A DNA stretch of 63,981 nt, counting the filler, from an uncultured bacterium (lineage in GTDB: Bacteria; CAYJOG01): the NCBI GenBank assembly GCA_964371695.1. It is 7 parts of 7 records of this genome, joined end to end, with 100 filler letters (N's around TTAATTAATTAA, not from the genome) between each part and the next. Parts side by side here need not be neighbours in the genome. Positions count along the whole stretch, not along the records: positions 1 to 9,205 come from CAYJOG010000078.1; 6 more parts are not named here. One strand, written 5' to 3'. Position 1 is the first letter of the stretch. The number at the start of each line of letters is the position of its first letter. The notes under the pieces were generated by a model that saw only the letters and a list, made by a program, of their open reading frames with translations, was not told the DNA's origin and did no database searches. Positions 1 to 61,076 of the stretch are shown here, piece by piece. Position numbers and translations under genes: made by a program.

Positions 1-765
1 CGCCCCGCCGATGGCCGCTATGGCGAAAACCCCAACCGCCTTCAGCACTATTACCAATATCAGGTGCTGCTCAAACCCACGCCCGACGACGTGCAGGAAA
101 TGTACCTGGAAAGCCTGAGGGTGTTGGGTGTGCCGGTGGAAGACCTGGACGTGCGCTTTGTGGAAGACGACTGGGAAAGCCCCACCCTGGGGGCCTGGGG
201 ACTGGGCTGGGAGGTGTGGCTCAACGGCATGGAGGTGACGCAGTTCACTTACTTCCAGCAGGTGGGCGGCGTGGCGGTGGAGCCGGTGAGCTGTGAAATC
301 ACCTATGGCACCGAGCGCCTCGCGATGTTTTTGCAGGAGAAAGACAACGTGTATGACCTGATGTGGAAATCCCCGGATTTCACCTATGGCGACGTGCACC
401 GCGAAGACGAAGAACTTTTCAGCCGCTACAACTTCGAACTGGCCGACATCGAAAAACTGCGCCTGCGGTTTGACCACCTGGAGCAGGAGGCCGAGGCCGT
501 GATGGCGGCGGGGGCAGAGGCTGAAGACACCAACAACACCGCCAAGGGGCTGAACCGGCGGCACACCGCCGTGGCGGCCTATGACAACGTGTTGTTAATG
601 AGTCACACCTTTAACCTGCTGGAAGCCCGTGGGGCGCTGGGTCAGGCCGAGCGCCAGCGTTATGTACTGCGGGTGCGCAACCTGGCCCGGCGCGTGGCCA
701 TGGCTTATGTGGGTGTGGAGGAACCAGTCCGCCCGCCCCGCAGCAAGAAAAAGGAGAAATCCTAA
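1..765 (+). CDS. glyQ: Glycine--tRNA ligase alpha subunit (5'-truncated)
   Basis: Frame open from base 1: [70 protein letters not shown]. Confidence 0.98.
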
Positions 766-1037
766 TGATGCCGATTCCAATCCCAATTCCTGCTACCCTG
801 AATTGGAATCGTATATTTGGCCTTGCCGTTCGTCGTGAACGGCTGCGGCCCGGCGCTGCGCAGGCAAAGCCCGCTTGCGCCGCGAACACCTCCGGCCCTG
901 TCTGGGCCTCGGTGTTCGAGCCGAATTCATCCATGAATTCATACCAATTCCGCTCATCCCTTCCTGGTTTCATTATGGGTTCCTGTCAGCTAAACCTTCC
1001 GGCGGTTTCCCGCCATTTCAGATTGGAATTGGTATGA
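765..1037 (+). other. 90-codon bridge ORF across a repeat element between glyQ and glyS
   Basis: ATG overlaps the glyQ stop (TAATG) with AAGGAG upstream; its TGA overlaps the glyS ATG (ATGA). The sequence is repeat-derived. Confidence 0.5.
768..1035. mobile_element. Composite MITE-like palindromic element (family A), copy 1
   Basis: Imperfect terminal IR ATGCCGATTCC...GGAATTGGTAT; 133-bp core 817-949 matches 15371-15503 at 129/133; four internal hairpins. Confidence 0.75.
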
Positions 1038-3361
1038 AAGGCAAAAAAGCCCCTCTGGAGCCGGTGCCCGAACTGCCTGATTTTCTGGCCCCCCTGGCCA
1101 TTGAAATCGGCGTGGAGGAAATGCCCGCGGGGGCCATGCCGGGTGTGCTGGCTTATCTGAAGGAAAGCGCCGCCGCGTTTCTTGAAAAGGAACATCTGGA
1201 ACCCTCGCACCTGTTTGTGGGGGGCACCTGCCGCCGTCTGGTGGTGACCTGCGACAGCATTCTCAAAATTCAGGAAGACCGGCTGGTGATTCACAAAGGC
1301 CCGCCGGAAAAAGTGCTGAGAGACGCCGCCGGAAACTGGACGCCCCAGGCCGAAGGTTTCGCCAAAAAGTTTGGCTTGAAGGCGGCGGACATCGTGATGG
1401 AAGACGGCTACGCCACCATCGAGATTCTGGAGCGGGGCCAGCCCGCCACGGTGCTGTTGGGCCGGTTTGTGCGGGAGTTTCTGGACAAATGCCCCCTGCC
1501 CAAACGCATGGCCTGGGGCGATGACGTGACGTTTCTCAGGCCCGTGCGCTGGGTGTTGGGGCTGGTGGGGGTCGAGGTGATCCAGTTTGCCACCCGCAAG
1601 CTCAAGGCGGGTCACACCACCCACGAGCCGCGCCAGAACCGCAGCAAACCCCTCTCGTTTCTGCACGCCGGTGAATATGCCGAAAACATGAAACTGCTGG
1701 GCGTGGAGCTTTGCCCGGAGCGGCGCAAAGAGCGGCTCCGCCACCTCGCCCTCCACGCGCTGGAGGGCACGGGCCTGAAACCCCTGGAGGCGGATCAGGA
1801 AGAACTGCTGGAGGAAATCAACTGGCTGGTGGAAACCCCTCACGCCCTGCTGGCGTCTTTTGACAAGACGTTTCTGGAAGTGCCGCCAGAGGTGATTCGT
1901 GTGGTGCTCATGCGCCACCAGCGTTATCTGCCCTTGGTGGAAAAAAGCAGGGCCACCCCTGCCAATTACGCCAACCGTTTTGTGGTGGTGCTGGACAGGC
2001 AGGAGGAATCAGACACCACCACCGCCATGGGGGGCCACGAGCGGGTGGTGACGGCGCGCCTGAGCGATGCCCTGTTTTTTTGGCGGGCCGACAGCGCCGA
2101 GCCGCTGGACAGTCCCCACCGTCAGGAAAAACTCAAGGACATCACCTTTCACCCCAAAATCGGTTCGCTGTGGGAAAAACAAATGCGCGTGGCCGGGGCG
2201 GCCAAGGCATACCAAGAAAAACAGAAAAAGGAACAGGCGATATGGTTTACGGCTGACCTCTCCGATGAGCGGCGTCGGCAGTTGGAAAATCAATTGTCAC
2301 TGGCGGGTTTGTCTGAAGCTGCTGCCCTTTATCGTCAGGACAGAACAACAACGCTGGTGGGAGAGTTCCCGGAACTGGAAGGCGCGGTGGGGGCGCGGCT
2401 GCTCATGCAGCGGACGGGCCAAAATGCCGCCGCCGTGTTGGTGGCTGAGGCCATGGGGTTGACGCGTCAGGGAGCAGACAAGGTTGACCAGTTGGTTTTT
2501 TCCCAGGGTGTGCCTAGCAGTCGAGCAGGCGTGGCGCTGTTGATGCTGGACAGACTGGACACATTGCTGCATTTTTTTGCGCTGGGTCTGGTGCCCTCCG
2601 CCACAGAAGATCCCTTTGGTCTTCGCCGGTCTGCGGCCCAAGTACTCAGAACCACCCTTCGTTGGAATCTGGATGCCATAGTTGATCTGGATGATGTGAT
2701 GGAAATTCTAAGGACCGCATCGCAGTCCCTCGGTGACTTGGATGAACAGGTCTGGCGGCAACTCAAGGAAAAGATTCATGAGTTTTTGAAAGACAGGTTT
2801 CCTCATGTTTTGCTGGAAACATATCCAAGGGCAACCATGCCGTTTGTTCACGCGGCCCAAAAAGGCAAGGCAGTGAAACGAATGCTTTGGGGTGATTCAG
2901 AACGCGAAATTCTGCAAGCCGTTTGGCGATACTCAGATGTGCCCGATCGGCTTAAGGCGCTTCTGGACTTGGCTGCGGACAGTGAAAGCTTCAAGGCAAT
3001 TGCCTCTGCGGCCATCCGTGTCCAGAACATCAGCCAGCACGGCACCCAAGCGGAAATTTTGAAAAAGGTTCCTGATTGGGTGTGTGGAAGCGCGCCTTGG
3101 TTGGCGATGCACGAGTTTGCTCTAAAATGGATTGATTTGGTGAAAGGGAGCTTGTTTATCCCGGCCAGCTATCTGAAGAATGCGGGGGAATTGGCCTATG
3201 AGTGTTCGGATGTGGTGAATGATTTTTTCGACAAAGTGCTGGTGAACGACGAAGACCCGCAAAGACGCAAAGACAACCACACGCTGGTGGGGGCGGTGGC
3301 GCTGCTCTATGGCACGCTGGGGGATTTCAGGGAATTAAAATCGCTGCTGGGTCAGGAATGA
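1034..3361 (+). CDS. glyS: Glycine--tRNA ligase beta subunit
   Basis: EIGVEEMPA, KGPP, PKRMAWG...FLRPVRW, ARLSDALFFW, GEFPELEG, DPFGLRR, FFDKVLVNDED; follows glyQ. Start placed at ATG 1034 because the upstream extension is repeat DNA. Confidence 0.95.
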   Translation: MKGKKAPLEPVPELPDFLAPLAIEIGVEEMPAGAMPGVLAYLKESAAAFLEKEHLEPSHLFVGGTCRRLVVTCDSILKIQEDRLVIHKGPPEKVLRDAAGNWTPQAEGFAKKFGLKAADIVMEDGYATIEILERGQPATVLLGRFVREFLDKCPLPKRMAWGDDVTFLRPVRWVLGLVGVEVIQFATRKLKAGHTTHEPRQNRSKPLSFLHAGEYAENMKLLGVELCPERRKERLRHLALHALEGTGLKPLEADQEELLEEINWLVETPHALLASFDKTFLEVPPEVIRVVLMRHQRYLPLVEKSRATPANYANRFVVVLDRQEESDTTTAMGGHERVVTARLSDALFFWRADSAEPLDSPHRQEKLKDITFHPKIGSLWEKQMRVAGAAKAYQEKQKKEQAIWFTADLSDERRRQLENQLSLAGLSEAAALYRQDRTTTLVGEFPELEGAVGARLLMQRTGQNAAAVLVAEAMGLTRQGADKVDQLVFSQGVPSSRAGVALLMLDRLDTLLHFFALGLVPSATEDPFGLRRSAAQVLRTTLRWNLDAIVDLDDVMEILRTASQSLGDLDEQVWRQLKEKIHEFLKDRFPHVLLETYPRATMPFVHAAQKGKAVKRMLWGDSEREILQAVWRYSDVPDRLKALLDLAADSESFKAIASAAIRVQNISQHGTQAEILKKVPDWVCGSAPWLAMHEFALKWIDLVKGSLFIPASYLKNAGELAYECSDVVNDFFDKVLVNDEDPQRRKDNHTLVGAVALLYGTLGDFRELKSLLGQE

Positions 3362-3874: not shown

Positions 3875-4654
3875 AGGCGGGGCCGGTGATGACAATCCGG
3901 GGTTTTCCAGCGGCAGCGCCAACTGGTCCACACCCTTGCCCCGGCGGTTGCGCACCCTGTCCAGCATGTTCAGCCGGTGGCGGGTGATGGCGGGGGCGCT
4001 GTCTTCCTGGTCGGGGTCATCCGAAAAATAAAAACAGGGCACACCCGCTAGAGCGCACATCCGGGCGGCTTCTGCTTCCCAGGCCGGGTTCATGGGGCGG
4101 GCGTGCTGGCCGGTTTCGTGCCCCACGCTCACCCAGTGAATGCCGCTCAGGTCCAGCACCGGCGGCGGCCCCAGCAGGGGTGTCATGGAGATGAACTTGA
4201 CTTTGGCGGCGGTTTTTTTGAGGTGGTCCACACGAAAGGCGTAATCGGCGTTTTCCACCGTGGCCCCCAGCCACAGGTTTTCTGGCCAGGGCAGCGCATC
4301 GCCCAGTGCGGCGGCCCGGCCGGGGCGTTTGGTGATGATCATGAACTCGTGCCACCAGGCCTGCTGCATGGTCTCAAATACCTGCTGCAAAAATTCCACC
4401 GTCACGGCGGGGTGAAAAAGGTCGCTCATGGAGTTGACGAAGATCAGCCGCGAAGGCCGCCATGTGAGCGGTTGTTTAAGCAGCGCCGGGTGCAGCGTGG
4501 GGGCAAAGCCGTGCTGATATTTTTTCACCCCCTGGGCCTGAAGTCGCAGGGAGATGCGCTCGGCGTAGCAGTTGTCGCAGCCGGGGCTTAAGCGCGTGCA
4601 GCCGGTGACGGGGTTCCATGCCTGATACGGCAATGCTTTGGGGGCTTTGGCCAC
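3848..4654 (-). CDS. DUF5131 (phage Gp37/Gp68-like) radical-SAM-like protein
   Basis: WNPVTGCTRLSPGCDNCYA, IFVNSMSDLFH, NLWLGATVE. Confidence 0.92.
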   Translation of the reverse strand: MAKAPKALPYQAWNPVTGCTRLSPGCDNCYAERISLRLQAQGVKKYQHGFAPTLHPALLKQPLTWRPSRLIFVNSMSDLFHPAVTVEFLQQVFETMQQAWWHEFMIITKRPGRAAALGDALPWPENLWLGATVENADYAFRVDHLKKTAAKVKFISMTPLLGPPPVLDLSGIHWVSVGHETGQHARPMNPAWEAEAARMCALAGVPCFYFSDDPDQEDSAPAITRHRLNMLDRVRNRRGKGVDQLALPLENPGLSSPAPPSDTFFRLG

Positions 4655-4737: not shown

Positions 4738-6018
4738 ATGTTGTTGCTGATTGGAGCGTTGGACCCCACCGGCCTGTCGGGCCTTTCCCGCGACGCGGCC
4801 ACGGCGGCGGACCTGGCCTGCCCGGCGGCCACGGTGGCCACGGCGCTGGTGGCGGAAAACAGCCTGGGGGTGAGCGCCGTGGACTGGCGGCCCGCGCCGG
4901 AGCTGGTGAGGGACGTGAAGCTGGTGCTGTCCGAGCCGGGCCTGCGCCTGAGCGCCGTGAAAGTGGGTGTGATTTCTCCTGCTCAGGCTGCGGTGCTTTT
5001 TCCGCTGCTGAAAAAAACCAAAGTCCCCGTGGTGTTTGACCCGGTGCTTGTTGCCGCCAGCGGCGGTGTGTTTGTGCCCCGTCCGGCGGAGATGTTGCCC
5101 TGGTTGGCCCAGGCCAGTTTGGCCACACCCAACTGGCCAGAGGCCCAGGCGCTTTTGGGCCGGTCAAAAATCACCGAAAAAGACCTGCCCCGGCTGGGGC
5201 AAACGGTGTTGCTCAAGTCGGCGGAAAAAAACCGCCAGCAGGTGACGGACTGGTTTTTTGACGGCGAGAGCCTCCACCGGTTTTATACGCCCGTTTCTGC
5301 CGAAGACCCGCGCGGCACAGGCTGCACACTGGCCACGGCGGCGGCGGTTTTTCTCTCACGGGGCCTGCCGCTGCAACAGGCTATCAAAGAGGCGCGGGAA
5401 TATCTGGCCCAGGCCCGCGAACTGTCCCAGGGCAGGCGGCTGGGTTTGGTGAACGCCCCCAGGGCCGAGGTGCTTCAGGCCCTGGCGGGGGTGATGCCGT
5501 TGCTGGAGCGCCTGCCTGCCAGACCCCTGCTGGCCGAGGTGGGTCTGAACCTGGCTTATTGCCTGCCGGGCGCAAGGGGGCCGCATCAGGCGGCGGCGTT
5601 CACGGGGCGCGTGGTGGCGCGGCACGGGTTGTTGTCGGTGACCGGCTATCCCGCTTTTGGGGCCAGCAGCCACGTGGCCCGGGTGGCGGTGCAGGCGCAT
5701 CAGATTTTTCCCGGTGTGCGGGCGGCCATGAATCTGCGCCATGGCTCGGTGCTTCTCAAACTGGCCAAAGGGGCTGGTCTGAAAGGTGTTTCTTTTGACC
5801 GGGCGGACGAGCCTACCCACCAGCAGCACAAAGACGCCCACACCATGGACTGGGGGGTGCGCGCCGCCTGCGCGGGGCTGAAAAATCCGCCCGATTTCAT
5901 CTTTGACGAAGGCGGCCCCGGCAAGGAGCCGATGATCCGCCTGCTGGGGCGTGACCCCCTGGACCTGCTGGACAAAATCCAGCGGGCGCTGGGTTTCAGT
6001 CTGGAAGAAAAAGGGTGA
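4738..6018 (+). CDS. thiDN: Bifunctional HMP-P kinase / thiamine-phosphate synthase (ThiD-ThiN fusion)
   Basis: ThiD part: DPTG..G..D, AVKVG, VFDPV, TPNWPEA, GTGCTL. ThiN part: EVGLNLAY, FGASSHVAR, DEGGPGKEPMIRLLG. Confidence 0.88.
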   Translation: MLLLIGALDPTGLSGLSRDAATAADLACPAATVATALVAENSLGVSAVDWRPAPELVRDVKLVLSEPGLRLSAVKVGVISPAQAAVLFPLLKKTKVPVVFDPVLVAASGGVFVPRPAEMLPWLAQASLATPNWPEAQALLGRSKITEKDLPRLGQTVLLKSAEKNRQQVTDWFFDGESLHRFYTPVSAEDPRGTGCTLATAAAVFLSRGLPLQQAIKEAREYLAQARELSQGRRLGLVNAPRAEVLQALAGVMPLLERLPARPLLAEVGLNLAYCLPGARGPHQAAAFTGRVVARHGLLSVTGYPAFGASSHVARVAVQAHQIFPGVRAAMNLRHGSVLLKLAKGAGLKGVSFDRADEPTHQQHKDAHTMDWGVRAACAGLKNPPDFIFDEGGPGKEPMIRLLGRDPLDLLDKIQRALGFSLEEKG

Positions 6019-6254
6019 AGCGGGATCATGGGTTTGGCTTCATCCTGGGCCAGAGGCCATGGATGGCCGATTCCGCCGCCGGTTCAGCGTGGCTGGTGCT
6101 GGTCCAAAAGGGGACTTTTTATTTCGAGGTAAAAAATGGCAGATGTTTTTCTGGGTTTGGCTGGACCGTGCGGCGTTGTTCGCAAGGTTTCACGGATGAA
6201 ACCGGCGAACCAAACATAAGCGGGGTGGTTTGTGATGGTTCGTATTCAAGGTAA
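6015..6254 (+). other. 79-codon bridge ORF across a family C repeat between thiDN and anmK
   Basis: GTG overlaps the thiDN stop (GTGA); stop lies ~20 nt inside the anmK start; same frame as the 34370-34678 ORF (GQRPWMA.SAAG, VRRC.QGF.DETGEP). Confidence 0.45.
6047..6224. repeat. Family C palindromic element, copy 1
   Basis: Hairpins GGCCATGGATGGCC and GGTTTCACGGATGAAACC shared with 34378-34629; partial copy at ~52113-52216. Confidence 0.8.
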
Positions 6255-7485: not shown

Positions 7486-7509
7486 GTGCGGTGGGGACAC
7501 CGCACCTAC
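7486..7509 (-). repeat. GTAG-type REP (empty allele of the 60543-60624 REP)
   Basis: GTAG-GTGCGGTG-TCCC-CACCGCAC on the minus strand. Confidence 0.75.
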
Positions 7510-7565
7510 TCCTCATTTTTAACCAAATGAACCACTATTTCCGAAAATGCCTTATGGGTGGCTGA

Positions 7566-9205: not shown

Positions 9206-9305
9206 NNNNNNNNNNNNNNNNNNNNNNNNNNNNNNNNNNNNNNNNNNNNTTAATTAATTAANNNNNNNNNNNNNNNNNNNNNNNNNNNNNNNNNNNNNNN
9301 NNNNN
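9206..9305. other. Artificial contig linker (also 18451-18550, 27685-27784, 36853-36952, 45950-46049, 54989-55088)
   Basis: 100-nt N run containing TTAATTAATTAA; contig lengths 9205, 9145, 9134, 9068, 8997, 8939, 8893 decrease monotonically. Confidence 0.98.
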
Positions 9306-11875: not shown

Positions 11876-13411
11876 ATGGTTCGGGTTTACAGCGCCACGG
11901 TGATGGGCATTGAGGCACTGCGGGTGATCGTGGAGGCCGATGTGTCCCCCGCCCTGCCCAGCTTCACCATCGTGGGTCTGCCCGATGCGGCGGTGAAGGA
12001 AGCCCGCGAGCGGGTGCGCGCCGCCGTCAAAAACAGCGCCTGCACGTTTCCCCTGGGACGCATCACGGTGAATCTCGCCCCCGCCAGCATTCCAAAAACC
12101 GGGCCGTTGTTTGACCTGCCCATTGCCCTGAGTGTGATTGCCGTGACCGGCGAGGTGCCCCAGGCGGCCTTTGAGGACATGGCCCTGATGGGCGAACTGG
12201 GGCTGGATGGCGTGGTGCGGCCCGTGCCGGGGGTGCTGGTGGTGGCCGAGCAGTTGCGGCGCGAGGGCGTGCGGCGGCTGGTGGTGGCGGTGGAAAACCT
12301 GCCCGAAGCCCGGCTGGTGGAGGGCCTGGAAAGCGTGGGGGTGAAAAGTCTGGCCCATCTGGTGGCCTGCCTGCGGGGAGACGACGACTGGGTGCTGCCC
12401 ACCGACGTGACCGTGGCGGCGGAGGAAGACGATCTGGCCCCAGACCTGGACGAGGTGAAGGGCCAGCCCTTTGCCCGCCGGGCGTTGGAAATCGCCGCTG
12501 CCGGGGGACACAACCTGTTGCTCATCGGCCCGCCCGGCAGCGGCAAAACCATGCTGGCCCGCCGTATGTCCAGCATTTTGCCCCCCATGACCTTTGAAGA
12601 AGCCCTGGAAGTGACGAAGATTCGCAGTGTGGTGAACGAGACGGGGGCGTCGCTCACGCTGGCGGGTCAGCGGCCTTTTCGTTCGCCCCACCACAGCGCC
12701 ACGTCACCCGCCATGGTGGGCGGGGGCCAGCCCATCCGCCCCGGCGAGGTCACCATGGCGCACCACGGCGTGCTGTTTCTGGACGAACTGCCGGAGTTCA
12801 ATCGCCCCACGCTGGAGAGCCTGCGTCAGGCCCTGGAAGATGGTTACGTGAACGTGAGCCGGGCCAGCGGCACGGTGCGTTTCCCGGCGCGGTTCTGCAT
12901 GGTGGCGGCCATGAACCCCAGCCCCACCGGTTACGCCCCCGACTCTGGCCACAAAGACGCCTGCACCACGCACCAGATGCGCCAATACCTCAGCCGCATC
13001 TCCGGCCCCTTGCTGGACCGCATCGATCTGCACGTGGAAGCCCCCAAGGTGAACCCCCGCGACCTGTCCCACGCGCCGCCGGGGGAATGTTCCGCCGTGG
13101 TGCGCGAGCGGGTGCTGGCGGCCCGTCAACAACAGGAGGCCCGCTTCAGGGACTTCCCCTTTTTCACCAACGCGTCGTTGCAGGGCAAGGCCATCGAGCG
13201 GTTCTGCCCCCTGGGCGACGAAGCCACCGCGCTGTTGAATCAGGCGGCGGACAAACTGGGTTTCAGCGCACGGGCCTATAGCCGGGTGCGCAAGGTGGCC
13301 CGCACCATCGCAGACCTGGAAGGCGCGGCGGACATCTCCGCCCACCACGTGGCCGAGGCCATTCAGTTTCGCAGTCTGGACCGGAAATATTTCGGCATGT
13401 ATCAGGGGTGA
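11876..13411 (+). CDS. comM: YifB/ComM family Mg-chelatase-like AAA+ ATPase
   Basis: IVGLPDAAVKEARERV, AAAGGHNLLLIGPPGSGKTMLA, RPFRSPHHS, GVLFLDELPEF, SGPLLDRIDL; ATG 7 nt after TACCAT. Confidence 0.96.
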   Translation: MVRVYSATVMGIEALRVIVEADVSPALPSFTIVGLPDAAVKEARERVRAAVKNSACTFPLGRITVNLAPASIPKTGPLFDLPIALSVIAVTGEVPQAAFEDMALMGELGLDGVVRPVPGVLVVAEQLRREGVRRLVVAVENLPEARLVEGLESVGVKSLAHLVACLRGDDDWVLPTDVTVAAEEDDLAPDLDEVKGQPFARRALEIAAAGGHNLLLIGPPGSGKTMLARRMSSILPPMTFEEALEVTKIRSVVNETGASLTLAGQRPFRSPHHSATSPAMVGGGQPIRPGEVTMAHHGVLFLDELPEFNRPTLESLRQALEDGYVNVSRASGTVRFPARFCMVAAMNPSPTGYAPDSGHKDACTTHQMRQYLSRISGPLLDRIDLHVEAPKVNPRDLSHAPPGECSAVVRERVLAARQQQEARFRDFPFFTNASLQGKAIERFCPLGDEATALLNQAADKLGFSARAYSRVRKVARTIADLEGAADISAHHVAEAIQFRSLDRKYFGMYQG

Positions 13412-13427
13412 AGCTTGATTCCGGCTC

Positions 13428-13596
13428 TAGAACTTGTCTCAAAAATCCCTCTGTGGATTTTTTCGATCGCCGTGGGCGGAAATGAATTCCGCCCACGAGC
13501 GCGAAAACCTGCGTGTTTTCAACCCTCCGGTTTTCGGTGCAGGCCATCCTTGGCCTGCCAGAAGCCATCTCATAAGTATTTTTGAGATGGCTTCTA
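13428..13596. mobile_element. MITE-like element with imperfect terminal IRs
   Basis: TAGAACTTGTCTCAAAA ... TTTTGAGATGGCTTCTA; internal hairpins GTGGGCGGAA/TTCCGCCCAC, CAGGCCATCCTTGGCCTG and GAAGCCATCTCA/TGAGATGGCTTC. Confidence 0.7.
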
Positions 13597-13625
13597 TCGC
13601 TTGGCGTCCTTTCTATACTCCCCCC

Positions 13626-15239
13626 GTGAGCCAGAAAACCCGCGCTCTTTCTGCCGCTGCTTTCATCGTGATGGCGGGCATGGGCCTGAGCCGTGTGTTG
13701 GGTTTTGTGCGCATGAGCGCCATCGCCCACGTGTTTGGCCGCAACCGGGCCACCGATGCTTTCATCGCGGCTTTTACCTTGCCCGACCTGCTTTACATTC
13801 TGGTGAGCGGCGGGGCGCTGGGGGCGGCGTTCATTCCGGTTTTCACCACCCTGCGGCAAAAGGGAGAAATGGAAAAAGCCTGGGGTCTGGCGAACAACCT
13901 GCTGAACGTGGTGAACCTGACCGTGTTCATTGGTGTGGTGTTGGGGGTGGTGACCACGCAACTAGTGGCCCTGCTGGTGCCGGGGTTTCACGCCACCGAC
14001 AAAGCCTTTGCCGAAACAGTGTGGTTCTCGCGCCTGCTGTTTCCCATGGTGCTGTTCACCACCATGAGCGGCCTGATGAACGGCTGGCTGCAAAGCCTGG
14101 GTGAGTTCAAGGCCCCGGCCCTGGCGTGGAGTGTCTACAACGTCGTCATCATCGCCGTGGCGCTCACCGTGGGCGAGCGGTTTGGCCTGCAAAGCCTGTG
14201 TGTGGCCACCGTGGCGGGGGCGGCGGCCATGGTGCTGGTGCAGGTGCCGGGTTTGCTCAGGCGGGGCTGGCGGCCCGCGTGGCGGCTCAACCTGCGCGAC
14301 GACGACCTGCGCCGCGTGCTCAAACTTTTTGTGTGGGCCATGCTGGGCATTGGCCTCTCGCAGATCAACCTCATGGTGCTGCCCACCCTGTTTGGCAGTT
14401 TTCTGGGGCCGGGCGACATCATGGCCCTGCAATACGCCATCCGTCTGGTGGTGTTTCCCCTGGGCATGTTCGGCAGCGCCATCAGCATGGCGATTTATCC
14501 CACGCTGTGCCGCGAGGCGGTGGAAGACGACGCCGGTTTCGCCAACACCCTCACCCTGGGTCTGCGGGCTGCGCTGGTGCTGTGTGTGCCCATGACGGTG
14601 GTGTTCATGGCGGCGGCCCCGGCTATCACACAAATCCTGTTTCTCACCGGCAAGTTCACGCTGGCAGACACCACCGCCACGGCGCGGGCGCTGGTGTTTC
14701 TGAGCCTGGGACTGGTGGGACTGGTGATGAACCAGATTCTCACCAAGGGGTTTCACGCGCATCAGGACATGGCCACGCCGCTGAAGACCGGCCTGGTGGC
14801 CACGTTTTTGGTCAGTGTGCCGCTCACCTGGCTGCTGACGGTGCGGGGTTACGCCATCGCCGGTGTGGGCGTGGGGCTGAGCGTGGGGGCGGTGAGCATG
14901 GGGCTGGTGCAGTTGTTTGTGCTCAGCCGGCGTTATCCCCTCATCAGCGCCAGCGCCATGCTGGTGTGCCTGCTGAAGGTGGCTCTGGCCAGCCTGCCCC
15001 TGGCGGGTTGCCTTTATTTCTTTCAAGAGGTGGCCTCGGCGCAGCACTTTGGCCGGTTATTACTGTTGGGGGGCTTCAGCGCCACGGGCGCAGCGGGGGG
15101 GCTGATGTTTGTGGTGCTGCTGGTGCTGCTGCGCGAAGAAAGCGCCGCCCTGGCCTTGGGGCGCTTGCCCGTGGTGGGGTCACGGATAAAAAGTTATGTG
15201 CAGAAAACGCCTGCGTCTCTTGGGGCAAAATCGCCCTAA
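13626..15239 (+). CDS. murJ: Lipid II flippase MurJ (MviN)
   Basis: LSRVLGFVR, DAFIAAFTLPD, GALGAAFIPVF, FPLGMFG; many TM helices; GTG 6 nt after TATACT. Confidence 0.95.
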   Translation: MSQKTRALSAAAFIVMAGMGLSRVLGFVRMSAIAHVFGRNRATDAFIAAFTLPDLLYILVSGGALGAAFIPVFTTLRQKGEMEKAWGLANNLLNVVNLTVFIGVVLGVVTTQLVALLVPGFHATDKAFAETVWFSRLLFPMVLFTTMSGLMNGWLQSLGEFKAPALAWSVYNVVIIAVALTVGERFGLQSLCVATVAGAAAMVLVQVPGLLRRGWRPAWRLNLRDDDLRRVLKLFVWAMLGIGLSQINLMVLPTLFGSFLGPGDIMALQYAIRLVVFPLGMFGSAISMAIYPTLCREAVEDDAGFANTLTLGLRAALVLCVPMTVVFMAAAPAITQILFLTGKFTLADTTATARALVFLSLGLVGLVMNQILTKGFHAHQDMATPLKTGLVATFLVSVPLTWLLTVRGYAIAGVGVGLSVGAVSMGLVQLFVLSRRYPLISASAMLVCLLKVALASLPLAGCLYFFQEVASAQHFGRLLLLGGFSATGAAGGLMFVVLLVLLREESAALALGRLPVVGSRIKSYVQKTPASLGAKSP

Positions 15240-15247
15240 ATGGAGGC

Positions 15248-15860
15248 GTGGAAAATGCCCTCTCCCTGAGGGAGAGGGCAAGAAAAAAGCCCTTATTTTG
15301 TCTACAGCTACTCCGAAAATGCTCTAATACCAATGAACATTCAAAATAGCAGGAATGTTCATTGGTTTTATTGGCCTTGCCATTCGTCGTGAATGGCTAC
15401 GGCCCGGCGCGGCGCAGGCAAAGCCCGCTTGCGCCGCGAACACCTCCGGCCCTGTCTGGGCCTCGGTGTTCGAGCCGAATTCATCCATGAATTCATACCA
15501 ATTTTCACCAAACCGTCTGAATTCGCAGCACCCGTTTCCAAACTGGTTCATCGCTCAGAATTAATGTTGTTTTGGTTGAAAATTGGTATAAAGAATTTCC
15601 GGAATTAATGGAGCAGGCATCCGAAGCTGACACAGGGCAATGTCCACCCCCTCTCCCCTTGAGGGAGAGGGTTGGGGTGAGGGGTTTATTCAAAAGCAAA
15701 AAAAACCAAGCAAGGTTTTCGTTTTTTGTTTGAACCCCTCACCCGGATGGATTGGCCAAAAAGGTCCAATCCATCCGACCTCTCCCTCAAGGGGAGAGGT
15801 GAAGGACCGCCCTACTTTTTGCTCTACCATTTCCGAAAATGCTCTGGGGAGAGGGCAAAA
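15248..15860. repeat. Repeat cluster: family A copy 2 (core 15371-15503) and family D palindromes
   Basis: Core 129/133 identical to 817-949; flanked by hairpin cassettes bounded by ATACCAAT...ATTGGT(A/T)T; CCGAAAATGCTCT ends at ~15313 and ~15833. Confidence 0.85.
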
Positions 15861-18450: not shown

Positions 18451-18550
18451 NNNNNNNNNNNNNNNNNNNNNNNNNNNNNNNNNNNNNNNNNNNNTTAATT
18501 AATTAANNNNNNNNNNNNNNNNNNNNNNNNNNNNNNNNNNNNNNNNNNNN

Positions 18551-20967: not shown

Positions 20968-22476
20968 ATGAGCTTTTTTGCAATTCGCAACACCCGTCCG
21001 CTGCTTTTTCTTTCCGCGCTGTTGCTGTGCCTGGGGTTTGCTGCCAGCCCGGCCCGCGCCGAGAGCATTCAACTGGAACCCCTTGTCGCCGGGGCCGCCG
21101 AAAAGGGCGTGGCCCGCGCGCTCAACGAGGCGTTTCTTTCCGCCGCTTCGCGTCAGCGGGGGCTGAAGGTGGTGCAGTCGGGGGCAGACTTCCGTCTGTC
21201 GCTTGCGGTGAAGGAATTCAGCTACAGCGCCGAAATCGGTCTGGCTGAGCAGCGGGTGGAGGCGTGGTTGCTGTCGCCTTCTGACGCCCGTGTGTTTCGC
21301 GCCAGCCTGTGGGGCACCAGTGGCGAGCGGGCCGGTTACAAGGGCGGCATGGACCCCCTGCTGAAAGAAGCCGCGCAGGACGCCGCCCAGCGGCTGGCTC
21401 AGGTTCTGGTCACCACCCTGCAATCCAAAGGCATGGTGGTGTCGTTGGCCGAGCCGGGCTATGTGCGGTTCGAAAACCGTTACGACAACCTGTTGCTGGA
21501 CGGCGTGGTGAGTGTGTTGCGACACGGCGACCTGCTGGCCACTGGCCGCGTGACCGATGTGTATGGCAAACACGCCCGCGCCAGGCTTGAGGAAGGCGCA
21601 CGGGAAATCCGCTATGGCGACGAAGTGATTTTGCGCGAGGTGAGCGAAGAGCCGGTGCGCTGGCATCAGTTCACGGCGGTGAAAAAGAAAAAGAAAAAGT
21701 TTTTGGGCATGTTGCTGGGGGCTATCGGCATCGGGCTGGTGGTGACGCTGGCGACCGAAAACAACAACGACCGCCCCGGCCAGGGCACCGGCCCCACCGC
21801 GCCCGCGTCCATCAATCTGCTCAGCGACGCGGCTTCGGTGGCGCGGTTTGGCCTGGGGGCGGCGGGGCAGAAAACCACGGCCACCCTCACGGCCACGGTG
21901 CTCAACGGCAGCAACAACACCCTCGACGCCGACGTGAGTTTTGAAACCACAGCGGGCTTCGTCACCGAAAACGTCGGCGGCAACTCGGCGGTGTTCAGCC
22001 CCCCGGCCACCAGCCAGATTGTCACCGTCACCGCCCGCGCCGCAGGCGGCGTGAGCAGGGAGTTTCGTGTGCACGTGGGCGGCGACCCGGCGCGTTTCAA
22101 GGCGGCCAACGACAGCGCCGCGCTTCAGGCCCCTCAGGGTGTGGATACGGCCCTCACTCTGCTGGCTTACGACGCCAACACGCTGGACCCATCTGGCCCG
22201 GTGTTGGTGCCCACCGGCACGCGCCTTACGGCGATTCTGCAAACCGTCGCCGGGGCAGGCGCTGCCAGTCAACTGGTGCCGCTAAACCCTGATACAGGTG
22301 CTGCCGAAACCGCAGCCAATCCGGCCACCCTCACCAGCAACAAAAACGGTGAGTTCAAACTGCTGGTGCGCCGCAATGTTGCCGAGCCAAACACCCAACT
22401 CAAGCTGGTGCTGCGCGAGGCCGGGGGCAACACCCTCAGCCTGATCGGCGGCGGAGACTTTCAGGTCACGCCATAA
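20968..22476 (+). CDS. Exported protein with internal poly-Lys/hydrophobic segment and Ig-like C-terminus
   Basis: Signal peptide ending ARA-E; KKKKKKFLGMLLGAIGIGLVVTLA; Thr/Ala-rich beta region similar to the repeats of the next gene. Confidence 0.75.
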   Translation: MSFFAIRNTRPLLFLSALLLCLGFAASPARAESIQLEPLVAGAAEKGVARALNEAFLSAASRQRGLKVVQSGADFRLSLAVKEFSYSAEIGLAEQRVEAWLLSPSDARVFRASLWGTSGERAGYKGGMDPLLKEAAQDAAQRLAQVLVTTLQSKGMVVSLAEPGYVRFENRYDNLLLDGVVSVLRHGDLLATGRVTDVYGKHARARLEEGAREIRYGDEVILREVSEEPVRWHQFTAVKKKKKKFLGMLLGAIGIGLVVTLATENNNDRPGQGTGPTAPASINLLSDAASVARFGLGAAGQKTTATLTATVLNGSNNTLDADVSFETTAGFVTENVGGNSAVFSPPATSQIVTVTARAAGGVSREFRVHVGGDPARFKAANDSAALQAPQGVDTALTLLAYDANTLDPSGPVLVPTGTRLTAILQTVAGAGAASQLVPLNPDTGAAETAANPATLTSNKNGEFKLLVRRNVAEPNTQLKLVLREAGGNTLSLIGGGDFQVTP

Positions 22477-22670
22477 TGTTCGCAGAGCCTTGGCGGAAAA
22501 TTGATATGGCCAAAAAATCATGGGAGATAAAACCTTTTTCCCTCTCCCCTTTATGGGGAGCGGGTGAAGGGCGCAGTAGGGCGGGCGGCCCCGCCCGCCT
22601 GCACAAAAATAAAAATACGCCGTTGTCCCCTCTCCCCTTTACGGGGAGAGGGTGGCCGAAGGCCGGGTGA
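22476..22670 (+). other. 64-codon bridge ORF across family D repeats
   Basis: TAATG overlap with the upstream stop; TGA ends 10 nt before ATG 22681 and overlaps its GAGG SD. Confidence 0.4.
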
Positions 22671-27684: not shown

Positions 27685-27871
27685 NNNNNNNNNNNNNNNN
27701 NNNNNNNNNNNNNNNNNNNNNNNNNNNNTTAATTAATTAANNNNNNNNNNNNNNNNNNNNNNNNNNNNNNNNNNNNNNNNNNNNGCCCTCTCCCTGAGGG
27801 AGAGGGCAAGGACTGGCCCCGCCCTTTGTCTACGTCAAACATGAATTTGCTCTATTCATGTTCAGACGCGC

Positions 27872-28654: not shown

Positions 28655-28739
28655 GGGCCAGTATAACCAGCCGGAAAAAAGGCTGGCAGAGCGCATTCTC
28701 ATGGCGTCGGGACGGCCTCTCACCGAATGAGGTTTAAAC

Positions 28740-28762
28740 GGCGGTGAGGACACCGCCGCTAC
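28740..28762 (-). repeat. GTAG REP
   Basis: GTAG-CGGCGGTG-TCCT-CACCGCC. Confidence 0.7.
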
Positions 28763-28819
28763 TCTTTATCCAAGCCGGGTGAACCTGCCCGGCCGCCTCT
28801 GAAAAAAAGGCCGAGGTTT

Positions 28820-29248
28820 TTACATTCCCGCCGCAGACGCCGTGCGCAGGTGAAACACCGCATCGGCCCGGCCGGTCACCCGTGCCCAGTGCAGGGGCGT
28901 GCCGCCGGTGTTGTCTTTGGCTTTGGTGTTGGCCCCGGCGTGAATCAGGAACAACACCATGGGTGCATTGCCCTTCATGGCGGCTTCGTGCAGGGGGGTC
29001 CAGCCGAACTTGTCCTTCAGGTTCAGCGATGCGCCTCCCCCCGCCAGGGCCTTGGCAATGCCCACGTCGCCGCGCTCTGCTGCGCAGTGCAGGGGTGAGC
29101 GCCCCAGACTGTCCTGGGCGTTTGCGGACAAACCCTCTTTCAGCAGTGTCTGTACCGACCACAAATCTCCCACGCTGGCCGCTGTATGAAGCGGGGTCCA
29201 GCCCGGCGGTTTGTGGCCGTTCCGAGCCTGACTGACATAAAACATGAC
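28820..29248 (-). CDS. Small ankyrin-repeat protein
   Basis: Four G.(T/S)PLH.A repeats; AAGGAG SD before MFYVSQ (start +/- a few nt). Confidence 0.88.
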   Translation of the reverse strand, partial: VMFYVSQARNGHKPPGWTPLHTAASVGDLWSVQTLLKEGLSANAQDSLGRSPLHCAAERGDVGIAKALAGGGASLNLKDKFGWTPLHEAAMKGNAPMVLFLIHAGANTKAKDNTGGTPLHWARVTGRADAVFHLRTASAAGM

Positions 29249-29656
29249 ATTCTCCTTTTTATTCTTGGCCCGTTGGTGTGAGGTTTTGGAGGATGGCCGG
29301 ATTCTATCAGAGAAGGCCATTGTTGTCCAGCATTACTTTGTGTTTTATGAAGATTTGAACAAGTGATGGCCGTCGCATTGCGTGAAAAAAACCACAATAT
29401 AGGCAGTTTTATCAGGGTTATTTTAGTTTTATTTTTTCACTGGTCAGCTTTAAATATTTATTAACTTTTAATATATAATTAAACACGACCCTGTTTGAAA
29501 AGTAGGGCTGTGCTGGTGAAAAAAAGACCTCTCCACCCCCGTCACATGGGGCTGAAAAAGCAGTTTGCCGAAAGTCGGCCCACTGCCCAAAAGCGGTGGT
29601 TTTGGCATTAGGATGCTAGGGCAGCCGGGCGCCTTTTTCTGGCTGCAGGAGGACCC

Positions 29657-33489: not shown

Positions 33490-34377
33490 GTGCCGTTTGT
33501 GATTTTGTCCAAGCCCGGTGTGGGGGAGACCCTGCGGCGGGTGTTGCCTCTGACCGTGGGGCTTGTGCTGATGGTTTCTCCGGCCAGGGCCGAGGAAAAC
33601 GCCGACTGGGTGGCCGGGCGCGCCGAACAGGACTTCGCCCGTGTGGCCGAGGCGCTGCTGCGCCTGCCGGAATCCACCGTGCTGTCTCTGAGTCACGACA
33701 CCGACGCGCTGGAAAAACTCATCCAGCAACTCAAAAACCAGCCGGGGGGGCAAAAGACTTTTCTCACCCTGCCGTTTGCCGCGCCCAAAACGGGCACTTG
33801 GTTTGTGGTGCAGGGGCAACTGGACCTGGTGAGCCACCGCAAGGGCACCAGCAACGCCTGGGCGTGGGATCTCGTGCTGAAAAACGCCGCAGGCCAGCAG
33901 ACCGACCCGGTCAAAAGCGGCAACGAGGCGCACTTTTGCTGGAACCAGCCGGTGCTGGCCCCCGCCCCCGGCGCGGTGCTGAAGGTGGAAAACAGCAAGC
34001 CCGATCACGCCCCCAGCGCCGTGCCCAAAGATGGTGGCAATTTTGTGATTCTGGACCACCTCAACGGCGAGGCCACGGCGCTGTGGCATTTCAAGCAGGG
34101 CAGCGTGGTGGTCAAACCGGGCGACCGTGTGCGGCGGGGCGACATGTTGGGGGCCTGTGGCAACAGCGGCAACAGCCTGTTCCCGCACATTCACATGCAA
34201 CTGGACAAACTGGACCCGGTCACCGGCCAGCGCACCGCCGCCCCCGCTGTGCTGGGCATTTACCGCCGGGGCAAAACGGGCGAGACCCTGGAGCGCCACC
34301 GCGTGGCCAAAAGGGGCGAGTTTCTCGCGCCCTTTTCGCTTACGCCCGCGCTGCCTGTTGGGGTGAGCGGTGATTGA
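33490..34377 (+). CDS. M23 family metallopeptidase, exported
   Basis: Signal peptide; H..AWD, GNFVILDH, H...GS..VKPGDRV, GNSGNSLFPHIH. Confidence 0.85.
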   Translation: MPFVILSKPGVGETLRRVLPLTVGLVLMVSPARAEENADWVAGRAEQDFARVAEALLRLPESTVLSLSHDTDALEKLIQQLKNQPGGQKTFLTLPFAAPKTGTWFVVQGQLDLVSHRKGTSNAWAWDLVLKNAAGQQTDPVKSGNEAHFCWNQPVLAPAPGAVLKVENSKPDHAPSAVPKDGGNFVILDHLNGEATALWHFKQGSVVVKPGDRVRRGDMLGACGNSGNSLFPHIHMQLDKLDPVTGQRTAAPAVLGIYRRGKTGETLERHRVAKRGEFLAPFSLTPALPVGVSGD

Positions 34378-34678
34378 TACCATTTCCCAACCAAAAGTGC
34401 GACAACCCCGGCCCCTTGGCGACACCCATGGCCAGAGGCCATGGATGGCCGTTTCCGCCGCCGGGCCAGAGTGGTCGGTGTTCATCCAAAGGGTTGGGGC
34501 TGGTCAAAAAACCATGATGAGCAAACGGTTTCCAGGGCTGGTCTGGCCCGTGCGGCGTTGTTTGCAAGGTTTCAAGGATGAAACCGGCGAACCAGAAAAC
34601 ATAAGCCGGGCAGGCCTCCTGTTTGTCTTGCCCTTTTCGCTTGCGCCCGCGCTGCCTGTTGGGGTGAGCGGTGATTGA
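34329..34678 (+). repeat. 49-bp direct repeat (34329-34377 / 34630-34678) flanking family C element copy 2
   Basis: GCCCTTTTCGCTT(A/G)CGCCCGCGCTGCCTGTTGGGGTGAGCGGTGATTGA twice with one mismatch, 301 bp apart. Confidence 0.92.
34370..34678 (+). other. 102-codon bridge ORF between the M23 and GT2 genes
   Basis: Starts at the duplicated GT2 start (GTGATTGA) and ends with the duplicated M23 C-terminus PFSL.PALPVGVSGD*. Confidence 0.5.
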
Positions 34679-36852: not shown

Positions 36853-36952
36853 NNNNNNNNNNNNNNNNNNNNNNNNNNNNNNNNNNNNNNNNNNNNTTAA
36901 TTAATTAANNNNNNNNNNNNNNNNNNNNNNNNNNNNNNNNNNNNNNNNNNNN

Positions 36953-39395: not shown

Positions 39396-39637
39396 AGAGC
39401 CTGTTTTAAAATTGCGCCATGTGAAACATGGTGTGATTTGAACAGGCTCTTGCGGTCATGAGTTTGCGAGGAGTCTTTCCAGATGCCCATTGGGGCATCT
39501 GGCCGAGCAAAGGCGATAGCGACCGTACCCGAAAGCCGAAACTTTAAAAAAGTTGAGGTTTTCGCCACGCCGAGGGGGCTTTGCCCCTGAAGGCGTTGGG
39601 TTTGAAAAGTCCACGATGGACTTTTCAAACAGGTTCT
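39396..39637. mobile_element. Composite MITE-like element: 55-bp cassette plus hairpin carrying the 60-nt module
   Basis: AGAGCCTGTTT left end, AAACAGGTTCT right end, internal AACAGGCTCT. Confidence 0.7.
39461..39520. repeat. 60-nt module B, copy 1
   Basis: AGTTTGCGAGGAGTCTTTCCAGATGCCCATTGGGGCATCTGGCCGAGCAAAGGCGATAGC, identical at 52139-52198 and 60551-60610. Confidence 0.95.
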
Positions 39638-42158: not shown

Positions 42159-42941
42159 ATGAGTGACGTGAATGCAAAAGTGGTGATGGACCTGCGCCAG
42201 CGCACCGGCAGCGGCCTGATGGACTGCAAAAAAGCCCTGGCCGAAACCGGCGGCGACATGGAAAAGGCCATCGAATACCTGCGCAAGAAAGGCATCGCCT
42301 CGGCGTCCAAAAAGGCCGAGCGTGAGGCGCGCCAGGGGGGTGTGTTCGCCCGCACCGAAGGCGGCAAGGGCGTGTTGATGGAACTGAACTGCGAGACTGA
42401 TTTTGTGGCCCGCAACGAAAACTTTCAGCAACTGGCGGCAGACCTGCTGGACATTCTCATTAAAGGGCAGGATGTGCCCGAAGAAACGCTGANNNNNNNN
42501 NNGAAGGAAGCCATCGCCCGGCTGGGTGAAAACATCGTGCTGCGCAATGTGGTGCGGTTTGACGGCAATGAGGTGTTTGCCTACATCCACGCCGGGGGCC
42601 GCGTGGGGGCCATGGTGCTGGGCACCGGTCTGGGCGAAGCCGCAGGCAAGGACCTGGCCATGCAGGCCACAGCCCAAAGCCCCACCTATCTGAAACCCGA
42701 AGAAGTGCCCGCCGAAGTGATTGAAAAAGAAAAAGAAATCTACGCAGAGCTTTGCAAAAAAGAAGGCAAACCCGAAGTGGCTTGGCCGAAGATCATCGAA
42801 GGCCGCCTTCAGAAGTGGTTTTCGGACACATGTCTGCTTGAGCAGGAACACTGGAAAGAAGCCAAACAGAAGGTGAAGGACACCCTGCCCAAGGGCGCGA
42901 CGGTGGACAAATTCGTGCGCGTTGAGCTGGGTCAGGGCTGA
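42159..42941 (+). CDS. tsf: Elongation factor Ts (10-N gap at 42493-42502)
   Basis: [31 protein letters not shown]. Confidence 0.97.
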
Positions 42942-45949: not shown

Positions 45950-46134
45950 NNNNNNNNNNNNNNNNNNNNNNNNNNNNNNNNNNNNNNNNNNNNTTAATTA
46001 ATTAANNNNNNNNNNNNNNNNNNNNNNNNNNNNNNNNNNNNNNNNNNNNTTTTTTTCCCCGTGCCGGTCTTGAACTGTCCGGGTGGTACGGGGCGTTTTT
46101 TCAGGCGCAAAGCGCCGACGTGGGGCCAATGGCG

Positions 46135-48566: not shown

Positions 48567-48772
48567 GTAGCGGTGACACCCCCGTCGCCATTGGATTGAA
48601 GGAAATTCAAGTGTTTTTGACCCTTCTGGAGTAGGCGCGGTGTCCTCACCGCGCTTTAAATTAACGGCGATGAGGACATCGCCGCTACTCCTGTATGCAA
48701 ACATTGTAAATATGCTCTAATTGAACCCCTCACCCGGCCCTTCGGGCCACCCGCTCCCCTTGATGGGGATAG
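48567..48772. repeat. REP cluster (three GTAG REPs plus a family D hairpin) between argJ and argB
   Basis: GTAG REPs at 48567-48589, 48631-48654 and 48666-48688 (inverted); CCCCTCACCCGGCC at ~48726. Confidence 0.8.
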
Positions 48773-52112: not shown

Positions 52113-52216
52113 GGCGACACCCGGGGCCAGAGGCCATGAGTTTGCGAGGAGTCTTTCCAGATGCCCATTGGGGCATCTGGCCGAGCAAAGGCGATAGCGG
52201 CCGTTTCCGCCGCCGG
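52113..52216. repeat. Partial family C element carrying module B copy 2 (52139-52198)
   Basis: GGCCAGAGGCCATG-[60 nt]-GGCCGTTTCCGCCGCCGG versus the empty allele at ~34430-34464. Confidence 0.9.
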
Positions 52217-52432
52217 TGAAGCCTGGTGGGGGTCTGCCCAGAACGTTTCTCTCCCCATAAAACCCGGCTCAAAGCAGCCTTTTTTTGGGGTGGGCTGAGC
52301 CGTGCGGCGCTGTTCGGCAGTTTTCATGGAGGAAAACGCCGAACCAGGCAAAAAACCGGGCATGCTCTTTGCGCCCGTTACCCAAAACGCTTTCCCATCT
52401 TCACATATATCGGTGTTTGATATAGTGACACC

Positions 52433-54988: not shown

Positions 54989-55088
54989 NNNNNNNNNNNN
55001 NNNNNNNNNNNNNNNNNNNNNNNNNNNNNNNNTTAATTAATTAANNNNNNNNNNNNNNNNNNNNNNNNNNNNNNNNNNNNNNNNNNNN

Positions 55089-58500: not shown

Positions 58501-58609
58501 GGGCCGCGACATTGTAGAAGGCGTGGGCTCAAGAACATGCACCTGGGCGGACATGGCTTCAATATCGGCGTTTTGCGCCGTGGTGTTGACAGGTTTTTAC
58601 AATGCCTTG

Positions 58610-60510: not shown

Positions 60511-60624
60511 GTAGCAGCGATGTCCCCATCGCTGCCTTATTTGGTGCGGTAGTTTGCGAGGAGTCTTTCCAGATGCCCATTGGGGCATCTGGCCGAGCAA
60601 AGGCGATAGCGACACCGCACCTAC
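60511..60624. repeat. Inverted GTAG REP pair; second REP carries module B copy 3 (60551-60610)
   Basis: GTAGCAGCGATGTCCCCATCGCTGC ... GGTGCGGT-[60 nt]-GACACCGCACCTAC. Confidence 0.9.
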
Positions 60625-60715
60625 TCTTCATTTTGAAACAGAAAACCACGCGTGCGGTCGTGGCCCATTTGTTTTGGTGCATCACAGGTTTTTGCCAACT
60701 GGACCAGGAGGGCAC

Positions 60716-60776: not shown

Positions 60777-61076
60777 TTATTTTTTCTTGGCGGGAGCCTT
60801 TTTGGCCACGGTGGCTTTTTTCACCGGGGCCGCCTTTTTGGCGGCAGCGGCGGCCTTGGCAGGCGCCGCTTTTTTCGCCGCAGGTTTCGCGGCTACTTTT
60901 TTGGCCGCAGGTTTGGCGGCGGCCTTGGGAGCCGCTTTTTTCGCCGCAGGTTTCGCGGCGGCTTTTTTCACTGCGGGTTTGGCGGCGGCCTTGGGAGCCG
61001 CTTTTTTCGCTGCAGGTTTCGCAGCGGCTTTCTTCGGAGCCGCTTTTTTAGCGGCGGGTTTTTTTGCAATTGCCAT
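60777..61076 (-). CDS. Histone H1-like Ala/Lys/Pro-rich protein
   Basis: 99 aa made almost entirely of KPAAKKAAP repeats; SD-like GGGGG upstream and terminator downstream. Confidence 0.85.
   Translation of the reverse strand: MAIAKKPAAKKAAPKKAAAKPAAKKAAPKAAAKPAVKKAAAKPAAKKAAPKAAAKPAAKKVAAKPAAKKAAPAKAAAAAKKAAPVKKATVAKKAPAKKK

Follow-up and report, generated by a model that had tools for sequence, protein, structure and literature searches.

How does a mobile repeat come to lie between two genes of an essential operon, and what happens to translation across it? The junction between glyQ and glyS raises this question in a draft genome of the uncultured bacterium CAYJOG01 (assembly GCA_964371695.1), of which we analysed a stretch of 63,981 bases (the window), made up of contigs of ~9.2 kb each, in descending order of size, that derive from a sediment community. 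A first, sequence-only reading had described open reading frames (ORFs) that begin on the stop codon of one gene and end at or near the start codon of the next, across palindromic repeats, at four co-directional junctions: glyQ-glyS (J1), thiDN-anmK (J2), a lipoprotein gene and the gene upstream of it (J3), and M23-GT2 (J4). It had proposed that these bridge ORFs relay ribosomes through the repeats. All four ORFs are present where that reading placed them, the identities of the flanking genes are backed by Pfam, and three repeat families are involved as claimed (A, C and the B-type hairpins).

We give a probability of about 0.5 to the reading of the bridge ORFs as insertion scars that selection did not shape, though they may be translated. 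The sequence supports well that real insertion scars lie at these junctions, and that the bridges at J1 and J4 have a mechanical origin, which is new. The relay proposal had the anatomy right, but the anchoring of the frames at J1 and J4 has a cause that it did not notice, namely insertion into stop/start overlaps with duplication of the target.

A seamless insertion at the glyQ-glyS overlap

The J1 spacer (766-1033, 268 nt) is one defined element and not a loose pile of palindromes. The A-family element that fills it behaves as a MITE (miniature inverted-repeat transposable element): it has terminal inverted repeats (TIRs; 87% complementary over 15 nt), a 3-nt target-site duplication (TSD; judged from two copies only), small size, several copies and a stable fold. 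A second copy, A2, has TIRs at 15327-15356 and 15560-15589, with the ends TACCAAT/ATTGGTA, and is flanked by TAA at 15325-15327 and 15589-15591. Because the repeated triplets are TGA at J1 and TAA at A2, the family appears to produce T-N-A target duplications of 3 nt. Such duplications are typical of some insertion sequences (IS) of the IS5 type (IS5/IS1031-like). The core of the J1 copy is 97% identical to 15371-15503, and its summed contig depth of ~650, compared with ~4.5 on the flanking single-copy contigs, suggests a high-copy family, this being a rough depth sum to which other organisms may add. Pfam recognised no family in either copy, and there is no transposase among the genes mapped in the window from codon statistics and Pfam.

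The long spacer would be a derived state, because glyS extrapolates to an overlap with, or adjacency to, the glyQ stop in 69 of 76 distant glyQS loci (among the matches listed). These matches, from a GlyQ scan of genome contigs, are all distant (<=60% identity), and closer relatives may be missing from them. Deleting the element together with one TGA yields glyQ-TAATG-glyS, a -1 overlap with AAGGAG 8 nt upstream. On this well-supported reconstruction, the 266-nt MITE inserted with its TIRs at a T-G-A directly after the first A of glyS, in an ancestral TAATG overlap of this form. The insertion would have left the native Shine-Dalgarno motif (SD, 751-756) and ATG765 stranded at the glyQ stop; this AAGGAG, which resembles SDs also used by rpsB, tsf, mcm and argJ, is probably the native ribosome-binding site of glyS, orphaned now. 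As the element ends in A, A1034 and the duplicated TG would have rebuilt the glyS ATG1034, where the present glyS frame starts. The orphaned ATG would then open a frame into the element that is free of stops by chance and, because 266 leaves a remainder of 2 on division by three, the duplicated TGA falls in phase, the outcome being 90 codons that end in ATGA. At its start, the ORF overlaps glyQ by -1, ATG765 sharing its A with the TAA (763-765); at its end, it overlaps glyS by -4, its TGA lying across ATG1034. The left arm of the J1 copy is 5 nt longer than that of A2 and of other sequence. In the J1 frame, A2 is open for 69 aa only and has stops close to both element ends.

The RNA of the J1 element has a predicted minimum free energy (MFE) of -117.3 kcal/mol (z -5.4), a value matched by none of 100 shuffles, and in the MFE fold 766-783 pair with ~1019-1037, closing the whole element. 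The glyS AUG, which is predicted to lie inside a perfect 14-bp helix (Table 1), has an unpaired probability of 0.058, the 6th lowest among 47 genes, and the wider glyS start region is the 10th least accessible of the 47. Given these ranks, we no longer regard the glyS AUG as exceptionally sequestered. Translation of the bridge may bring terminating ribosomes to this base-paired AUG, which has no SD.

The locus is present in four sediment DNA runs, all from one study; the listing of runs that contain it included no RNA run. Logan contigs from the four runs cover both element/gene boundaries at J1 and at J2, those of J1 without differences. No empty allele, that is, no joint skipping the whole insert, was seen at J1 or J2 in the run contigs, which cannot prove its absence. 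Metagenome contigs scanned with an exact 21-mer of the A core gave no match, and neither did a scan with a gapped C-family pattern.

A duplicated overlap at J4 and looser ends at J2 and J3

At J4, both ends of the bridge carry the motif GTGATTGA, with an 8-nt overlap at each (-8 and -8). A direct duplication of 58 nt brackets a 243-nt insert and takes in the final 18 codons of M23 together with its stop and the GT2 start that overlaps it; the two copies are 93% identical, and 98% over the last 49 nt. Through this duplication, the M23-stop/GT2-start overlap stands on either side of the insert, giving the same two anchors as at J1. The last 18 residues of the J4 peptide repeat the M23 C-terminus, and the second copy preserves in full the native context upstream of GT2. 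As an observation in its own right, a length of 58 nt far exceeds that of usual transposase target duplications. Translation of the J1 and J4 ORFs is probable, since both inherit intact ribosome-binding sites.

The claim that the bridges end at or near the next start was borne out at J1 and J4, where the end lies on the overlap, and only loosely at the other two junctions. The J2 stop (TAA, 6252-6254) lies ~17 nt past anmK ATG6235, near the start but not on it, and 10 nt remain between the end of the J3 ORF and the lipoprotein ATG downstream, which we place at 22681 instead of 22682 and which has an SD of its own (GAGGGG). The J2 start, GTG6015, overlaps the thiDN TGA (6016-6018), has no SD and is not an orphaned start. 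The TGA at 6016-6018 recurs at 6233-6235, a pair that is consistent with a target duplication at an ancestral TGATG overlap; no TIRs were found at J2, and anmK is preceded by the SD-like motif GGGGTGG. At J3, the ATG overlaps the upstream TAA (22474-22476, TAATG), and the stop is a TGA within the SD-like motif GGTGAGGGG at the end of a B-type element, other B copies ending likewise. The B-type hairpins (GGGGAGAGGG) occur in about ten copies in the window, and two 25-nt palindromes stand in the J3 spacer, where no target duplication was found. This bridge looks fortuitous, a TAATG coincidence combined with a TGA in an SD-like motif.

Table 1. Positions of the bridge ORFs, the elements they cross and the junctions used for comparison
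Feature	Position	Strand	Remarks
Putative orphaned glyS SD, AAGGAG	751-756	+	Within the glyQ 3' end, 8 nt before ATG765
J1 bridge ORF, 90 codons	765-1037	+	ATG765 to TGA 1035-1037
TSD, left copy (TGA)	766-768	+	Counterpart of the TAA/TAA pair around A2
A-family MITE, 266 nt	769-1034	+	TIRs 769-782 / 1021-1034; core 817-949
Perfect 14-bp helix	938-1038	+	Predicted pairing of 938-951 with 1025-1038; glyS AUG inside
glyS	1034-3361	+	Pfam PF02092; no SD before ATG1034
TSD, right copy (TGA)	1035-1037	+	Stop of the J1 bridge ORF; overlaps the presumed rebuilt glyS ATG
J2 bridge ORF, 79 codons	6015-6254	+	thiDN-anmK; spans C1 (~6034-6225)
comM>murJ ORF (counter-example)	13408-13485	+	GTG overlaps comM TGA (GTGA); stops after ~25 codons
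A2, second A-family copy, 261 nt	15328-15588	+	Convergent murJ/MCP spacer; TAA/TAA flanks
J3 bridge ORF, 64 codons	22476-22670	+	Spans two B-type hairpins (22540-22564, 22628-22652) and a GC hairpin
ribF/ROK ORF, 118 aa	26642-26998	-	Overlaps both neighbours; ATG 8 nt before ribF stop, end 31 nt inside ROK
58-nt duplication, copy 1	34320-34377	+	M23 3' end and GTGATTGA overlap
J4 bridge ORF, 102 codons	34370-34678	+	First GT2 GTG copy to second M23 TGA copy; spans C2 (~34416-34610)
58-nt duplication, copy 2	34621-34678	+	Carries GT2 SD and start
rSAM>meaB2 spanning ORF, 127 aa	39311-39694	-	Loosely anchored (start -28, end +69); spans spacer and a D4 repeat
C3, third C-family copy	52199-52347	+	Divergent rplM/Ank2 spacer; D4 element nested inside

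The bridge frames lack the marks of genes

The sequence-only reading had also seen the bridges as a source of small de novo proteins, and as selected products these found no support. The bridge ORFs score -0.18 to -0.28 per codon, compared with ~+0.07 to +0.40 for real genes, and their GC content at third codon positions is 0.56-0.60, compared with mostly 0.7-0.84. A Pfam search of the bridge ORFs returned no family. When compared with 5.8 billion proteins, the J1 peptide matched only itself, and no longer protein carrying it was found, which is weak evidence; for the J4 peptide, the matches were itself and one further C-family ORF. As the earlier reading had noted, the bridges run through the copies C1 and C2 in one and the same frame. 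The 51 differences between these copies are spread 18/19/14 over codon positions 1/2/3, and the codon changes comprise 1 synonymous and 30 non-synonymous ones; synonymous changes are more numerous in the two other frames. A test of stop avoidance on this pair was dropped, the chance of staying open over ~51 differences being roughly 0.1-0.3 by our own rough estimate. The hairpin in the right arm of the C family (6166-6214, 34548-34596 and 52300-52348) keeps its shape in 3/3 copies by paired changes; judged from these copies, constraint in the C family acts on hairpin structure and not on the peptide.

On this evidence, the bridge ORFs, which lack a coding signature, homologues and peptide constraint, are not protein-coding small genes. 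That they are genuine small genes after all could be argued from the J1 ORF being on record as a predicted protein on four contigs, and from the other C-family ORF standing in the same frame elsewhere (P0004), but their sequence is that of repeat elements, and we consider this explanation extremely improbable.

Insertion scars, relay or coincidence

Selection is not required for the pattern, as stop-poor, hairpin-rich elements are spanned by an open frame in a quarter to half of shuffles. In dinucleotide shuffles, a spanning open frame in any of the three frames appeared at frequencies of 0.35 (J1), 0.53 (J2), 0.24 (J3) and 0.53 (J4), and antisense frames are likewise open across J3 and J4.

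Several observations nevertheless weigh against unselected scars. Six of the nine co-directional spacers of at least 150 nt have an open sense frame, while 3.08 were expected (P=0.036), and open frames are fewer in antisense (3/9) and on other strands (3/18; Fisher P=0.036). If a bridge is counted as anchored when it starts -10 to +3 nt from the upstream stop and ends -15 to +20 nt from the next start, four of the nine spacers are bridged. The expectation is 0.68 in shuffles (P=9e-4), 0.79 when spacer ends are kept (P=0.0016), 0.33 when real control spacers are swapped in (P=7.5e-5) and 1.44 when the real sequence is kept and only its phase varies (P=0.016). Moreover, the copies that lie outside operons are closed in the frames used in the bridges: A2 in that of J1, and C3 in that of J2 and J4, where C3 has a TGA at 52296 and both C1 and C2 have TGG. 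The phase at J1 is set by the longer left arm of that copy. Finally, no SD precedes the glyS AUG, for which 94% pairing is predicted.

A block-shuffle null gave P=7.7e-5 for the bridges, but it is probably too harsh because it breaks the TA depletion of real spacers. Looser anchoring windows left 6/9 spacers bridged, and four shorter spacers added one more bridge (0.32 expected). The expectation that bridges would outnumber those in shuffled spacers held against every null, but the count comes from nine junctions in a single window, with anchoring windows set post hoc and for a finding that was chosen as striking, and two of the four cases belong to one repeat family. The excess is suggestive and not established.

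These observations bear on a rival explanation that we regard as possible but doubtful, a selected translational relay at J1 and perhaps J4. Here, only insertions that are crossed by a frame, and in phase, would survive in tight overlaps, and ribosomes would melt the hairpins and reinitiate downstream. The geometry of J1 fits, with an SD and an ATG that overlaps the glyQ stop by -1, an ATGA at the glyS start, and a glyS AUG that lacks an SD and is predicted to lie in a perfect helix. In addition, GlyQS is a heteromer, and according to PMC10666635 short overlaps are enriched in heteromer pairs, with coupling nearly lost at ~20 nt. At J4, the repetition ahead of GT2 of the closing 18 codons of M23, with stop and overlap, also fits, as do the excess of bridges over the nulls and the closed frames of A2 and C3. 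However, the J4 spacer bridges in 6/9 phases regardless, and J4 needs no relay because the duplicate keeps the SD and start context of GT2. J2 and J3 miss the distance rule and have SD-like motifs before their downstream genes. A clear SD is missing in roughly 60% of the genes of the window (our own reading of upstream sequences) and five genes have an AUG less accessible than that of glyS, so that glyS may cope without a relay. It can also manage without a bridge elsewhere, since none of six distant genomes (among the matches listed) with glyQ-glyS spacers of 95-396 nt has a bridging ORF. In the window itself, the ORF of orphan type at comM>murJ ends ~140 nt short of GTG13627, the likely start of murJ. 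As published experiments show reinitiation to depend on stop and start codons that overlap or almost adjoin, a distance of ~20 nt nearly abolishing it (PMC10666635), only J1 (-1, -4) and J4 (-8, -8) could relay. We consider a relay plausible at J1, unlikely at J2 and J3, and unproven as a general strategy.

It is tempting to speculate further that MITEs colonise coupled overlaps, even in essential operons, only when the orphaned start crosses the element to a rebuilt overlap, two reinitiations replacing one, and that this acts as a filter on the copies that persist. We hold this to be rather unlikely; if true, it would explain why the operon copies are open and in phase and why convergent or divergent copies of the same family are not.

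Two explanations dispense with translation of the bridges or make it irrelevant. That the frames are pure coincidence, GC-rich hairpin elements being stop-poor and ribosomes not using their frames, agrees with the 24-53% of dinucleotide shuffles that give a spanning frame at J1-J4, with the open antisense frames of J3 and J4 and with the starts of J2 and J3, which have no SD. We find it improbable, as J1 and J4 begin at what appear to be native gene starts equipped with an SD, whose non-use would require an active block, and as the anchored count lies above all nulls. Alternatively, TIR pairing could bring the orphaned SD near the rebuilt glyS AUG for direct initiation, the ORF being irrelevant; across the stem of the MFE fold, the two would be ~12 nt apart. 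Split ribosome-binding sites of this kind are known from phage T4, but a 266-nt insert is far above the size of known cases. The centroid structure, moreover, favours the pairing of 938-951 with 1025-1038, and ATG765 and ATG768 are better spaced from the SD and would compete, all of which makes this bypass very unlikely. We therefore retain the reading of the bridge ORFs as unselected insertion scars, with the even odds given above.

Other junctions and features of the window

The earlier reading had contrasted the bridges with repeat-filled junctions that have none and whose downstream genes carry a TANNNT box of their own. As a clean contrast this breaks down: rSAM>meaB2, listed there as bridge-free, has a spanning ORF, and a further ORF joins ribF and ROK (Table 1). 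The latter, free of repeats and with a hydrophobic stretch, is probably no bridge but a genuine gene for a small membrane protein. A sigma-70 consensus scan found one site across the five contrast junctions, which is chance level, and none across the four bridge junctions; a terminator consensus scan of both sets was at chance level. Next to the comM>murJ ORF, the murJ frame is open for ~195 nt upstream of the likely start (13431-13626), where three hairpins lie, and it is from residue 97 of the long ORF that Pfam matches MurJ; automatic annotation would over-extend the protein.

The contigs of the window are joined by N44-TTAATTAATTAA-N44 linkers at 9206-9305, 18451-18550, 27685-27784, 36853-36952, 45950-46049 and 54989-55088, and additional N10 runs stand at 42493-42502 and 57504-57513; genes and junctions on the two sides of a linker are no true neighbours. 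Repeats stand at the ends of several contigs. The window has a GC content of 60.6%, and its gene map was drawn from codon statistics and Pfam, gene starts being our own calls. ATGA overlaps are frequent (25038/25041, 36198/36201, 49962/49965 and 57451/57454). An Rfam scan of the window returned one tRNA and nothing else.

Among the other repeats, D4 (61-63 nt) is 100% identical in three unrelated contexts, at 39461-39523, 52139-52199 and 60551-60613, the second of these being nested in the first hairpin of C3. It forms a hairpin, CCAGATGCCC...GGGCATCTGG, and has no Rfam match. A GC hairpin, GCGGTG.GGACACCGC followed by CTACTC, is repeated at 7488-7525, 28741-28778, 48667-48704 and 60603-60640; its copies adjoin gene ends or starts, and 28739-28760 scores as terminator-like on the + strand. 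Within a DUF5131 gene, summed contig depth over the four runs rises to ~15-24 at 4299-4605, from ~4-5 in the adjoining bins, and the segment is either multi-copy or common to other community members. At 60777-61076 (- strand) lies a 99-aa Lys/Ala repeat protein with KAAAKPAAKK units that resembles histone H1-like nucleoid proteins; ankyrin-repeat proteins are encoded close to it, at 28820-29320, 52433-53800 and 58499-60319.

Relation to known repeats and meaning

In its small size, TIRs, TSD, multiple copies and long stem-loops, the A element is like ERIC/IRU, YPAL/RU-2, RU-3 and the 107-bp Correia element, as reviewed by Delihas (2008, PMC2229807). According to the same review, many bacterial MITE families carry contiguous ORFs, fused in frame to host ORFs, so that an open frame in a MITE is as such not new. 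ERIC-type MITEs, which often have one stop-free frame and are co-transcribed with their neighbours there, can be likened to J1; J1 is unlike them in that its frame is separate, is opened by a host start codon left orphaned and closes on the duplicated target, which overlaps the next start. The likeness to Rickettsia palindromic elements (RPEs) lies in palindromic mobile repeats near or in essential genes that are tolerated as translation passes through. An RPE, however, lies within a coding sequence, in its reading frame, and is translated as a segment of the protein. J1 is unlike them, since its 266+3 = 269 nt cannot be divided evenly by 3, its place is between two cistrons and its frame differs from that of glyS; the frame is not kept, nor is the peptide found in a host protein.

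At J3, 25-nt palindromes between co-directional genes recall repetitive extragenic palindromes (REPs) and bacterial interspersed mosaic elements (BIMEs). REPs are normally treated as untranslated stabilisers or attenuators of mRNA. J3 differs from them in having an ORF across the palindromes that ends shortly before a start with its own SD. A functional likeness exists with termination-reinitiation, given the -1 (TAATG) and -4 (ATGA) overlaps of the heteromer pair at J1 and the overlaps at both ends of J4; J1 and J4 lie within its stop/start distance, and J2 and J3 do not. Known cases, however, couple two real genes, whereas the link at J1 would be a putative ORF of 90 codons that looks non-coding. 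Our literature search found no paper in which translational coupling, in the sense of a relay, is tied to MITE or REP elements, and no description of a frame that begins at an orphaned start, crosses a MITE and stops on the rebuilt overlap.

Annotation pipelines will call the J1 ORF a hypothetical protein, and have already done so on the four contigs mentioned. Without a relay, the glyQ-glyS junction is a clean case of seamless MITE insertion, in which the start codon would have been rebuilt and the ribosome-binding site orphaned. A relay, if true, would tie MITE biology to translational coupling and explain how mobile repeats enter essential operons without polarity, and the junction would be a natural test of ribosome flow through a meaningless cistron.

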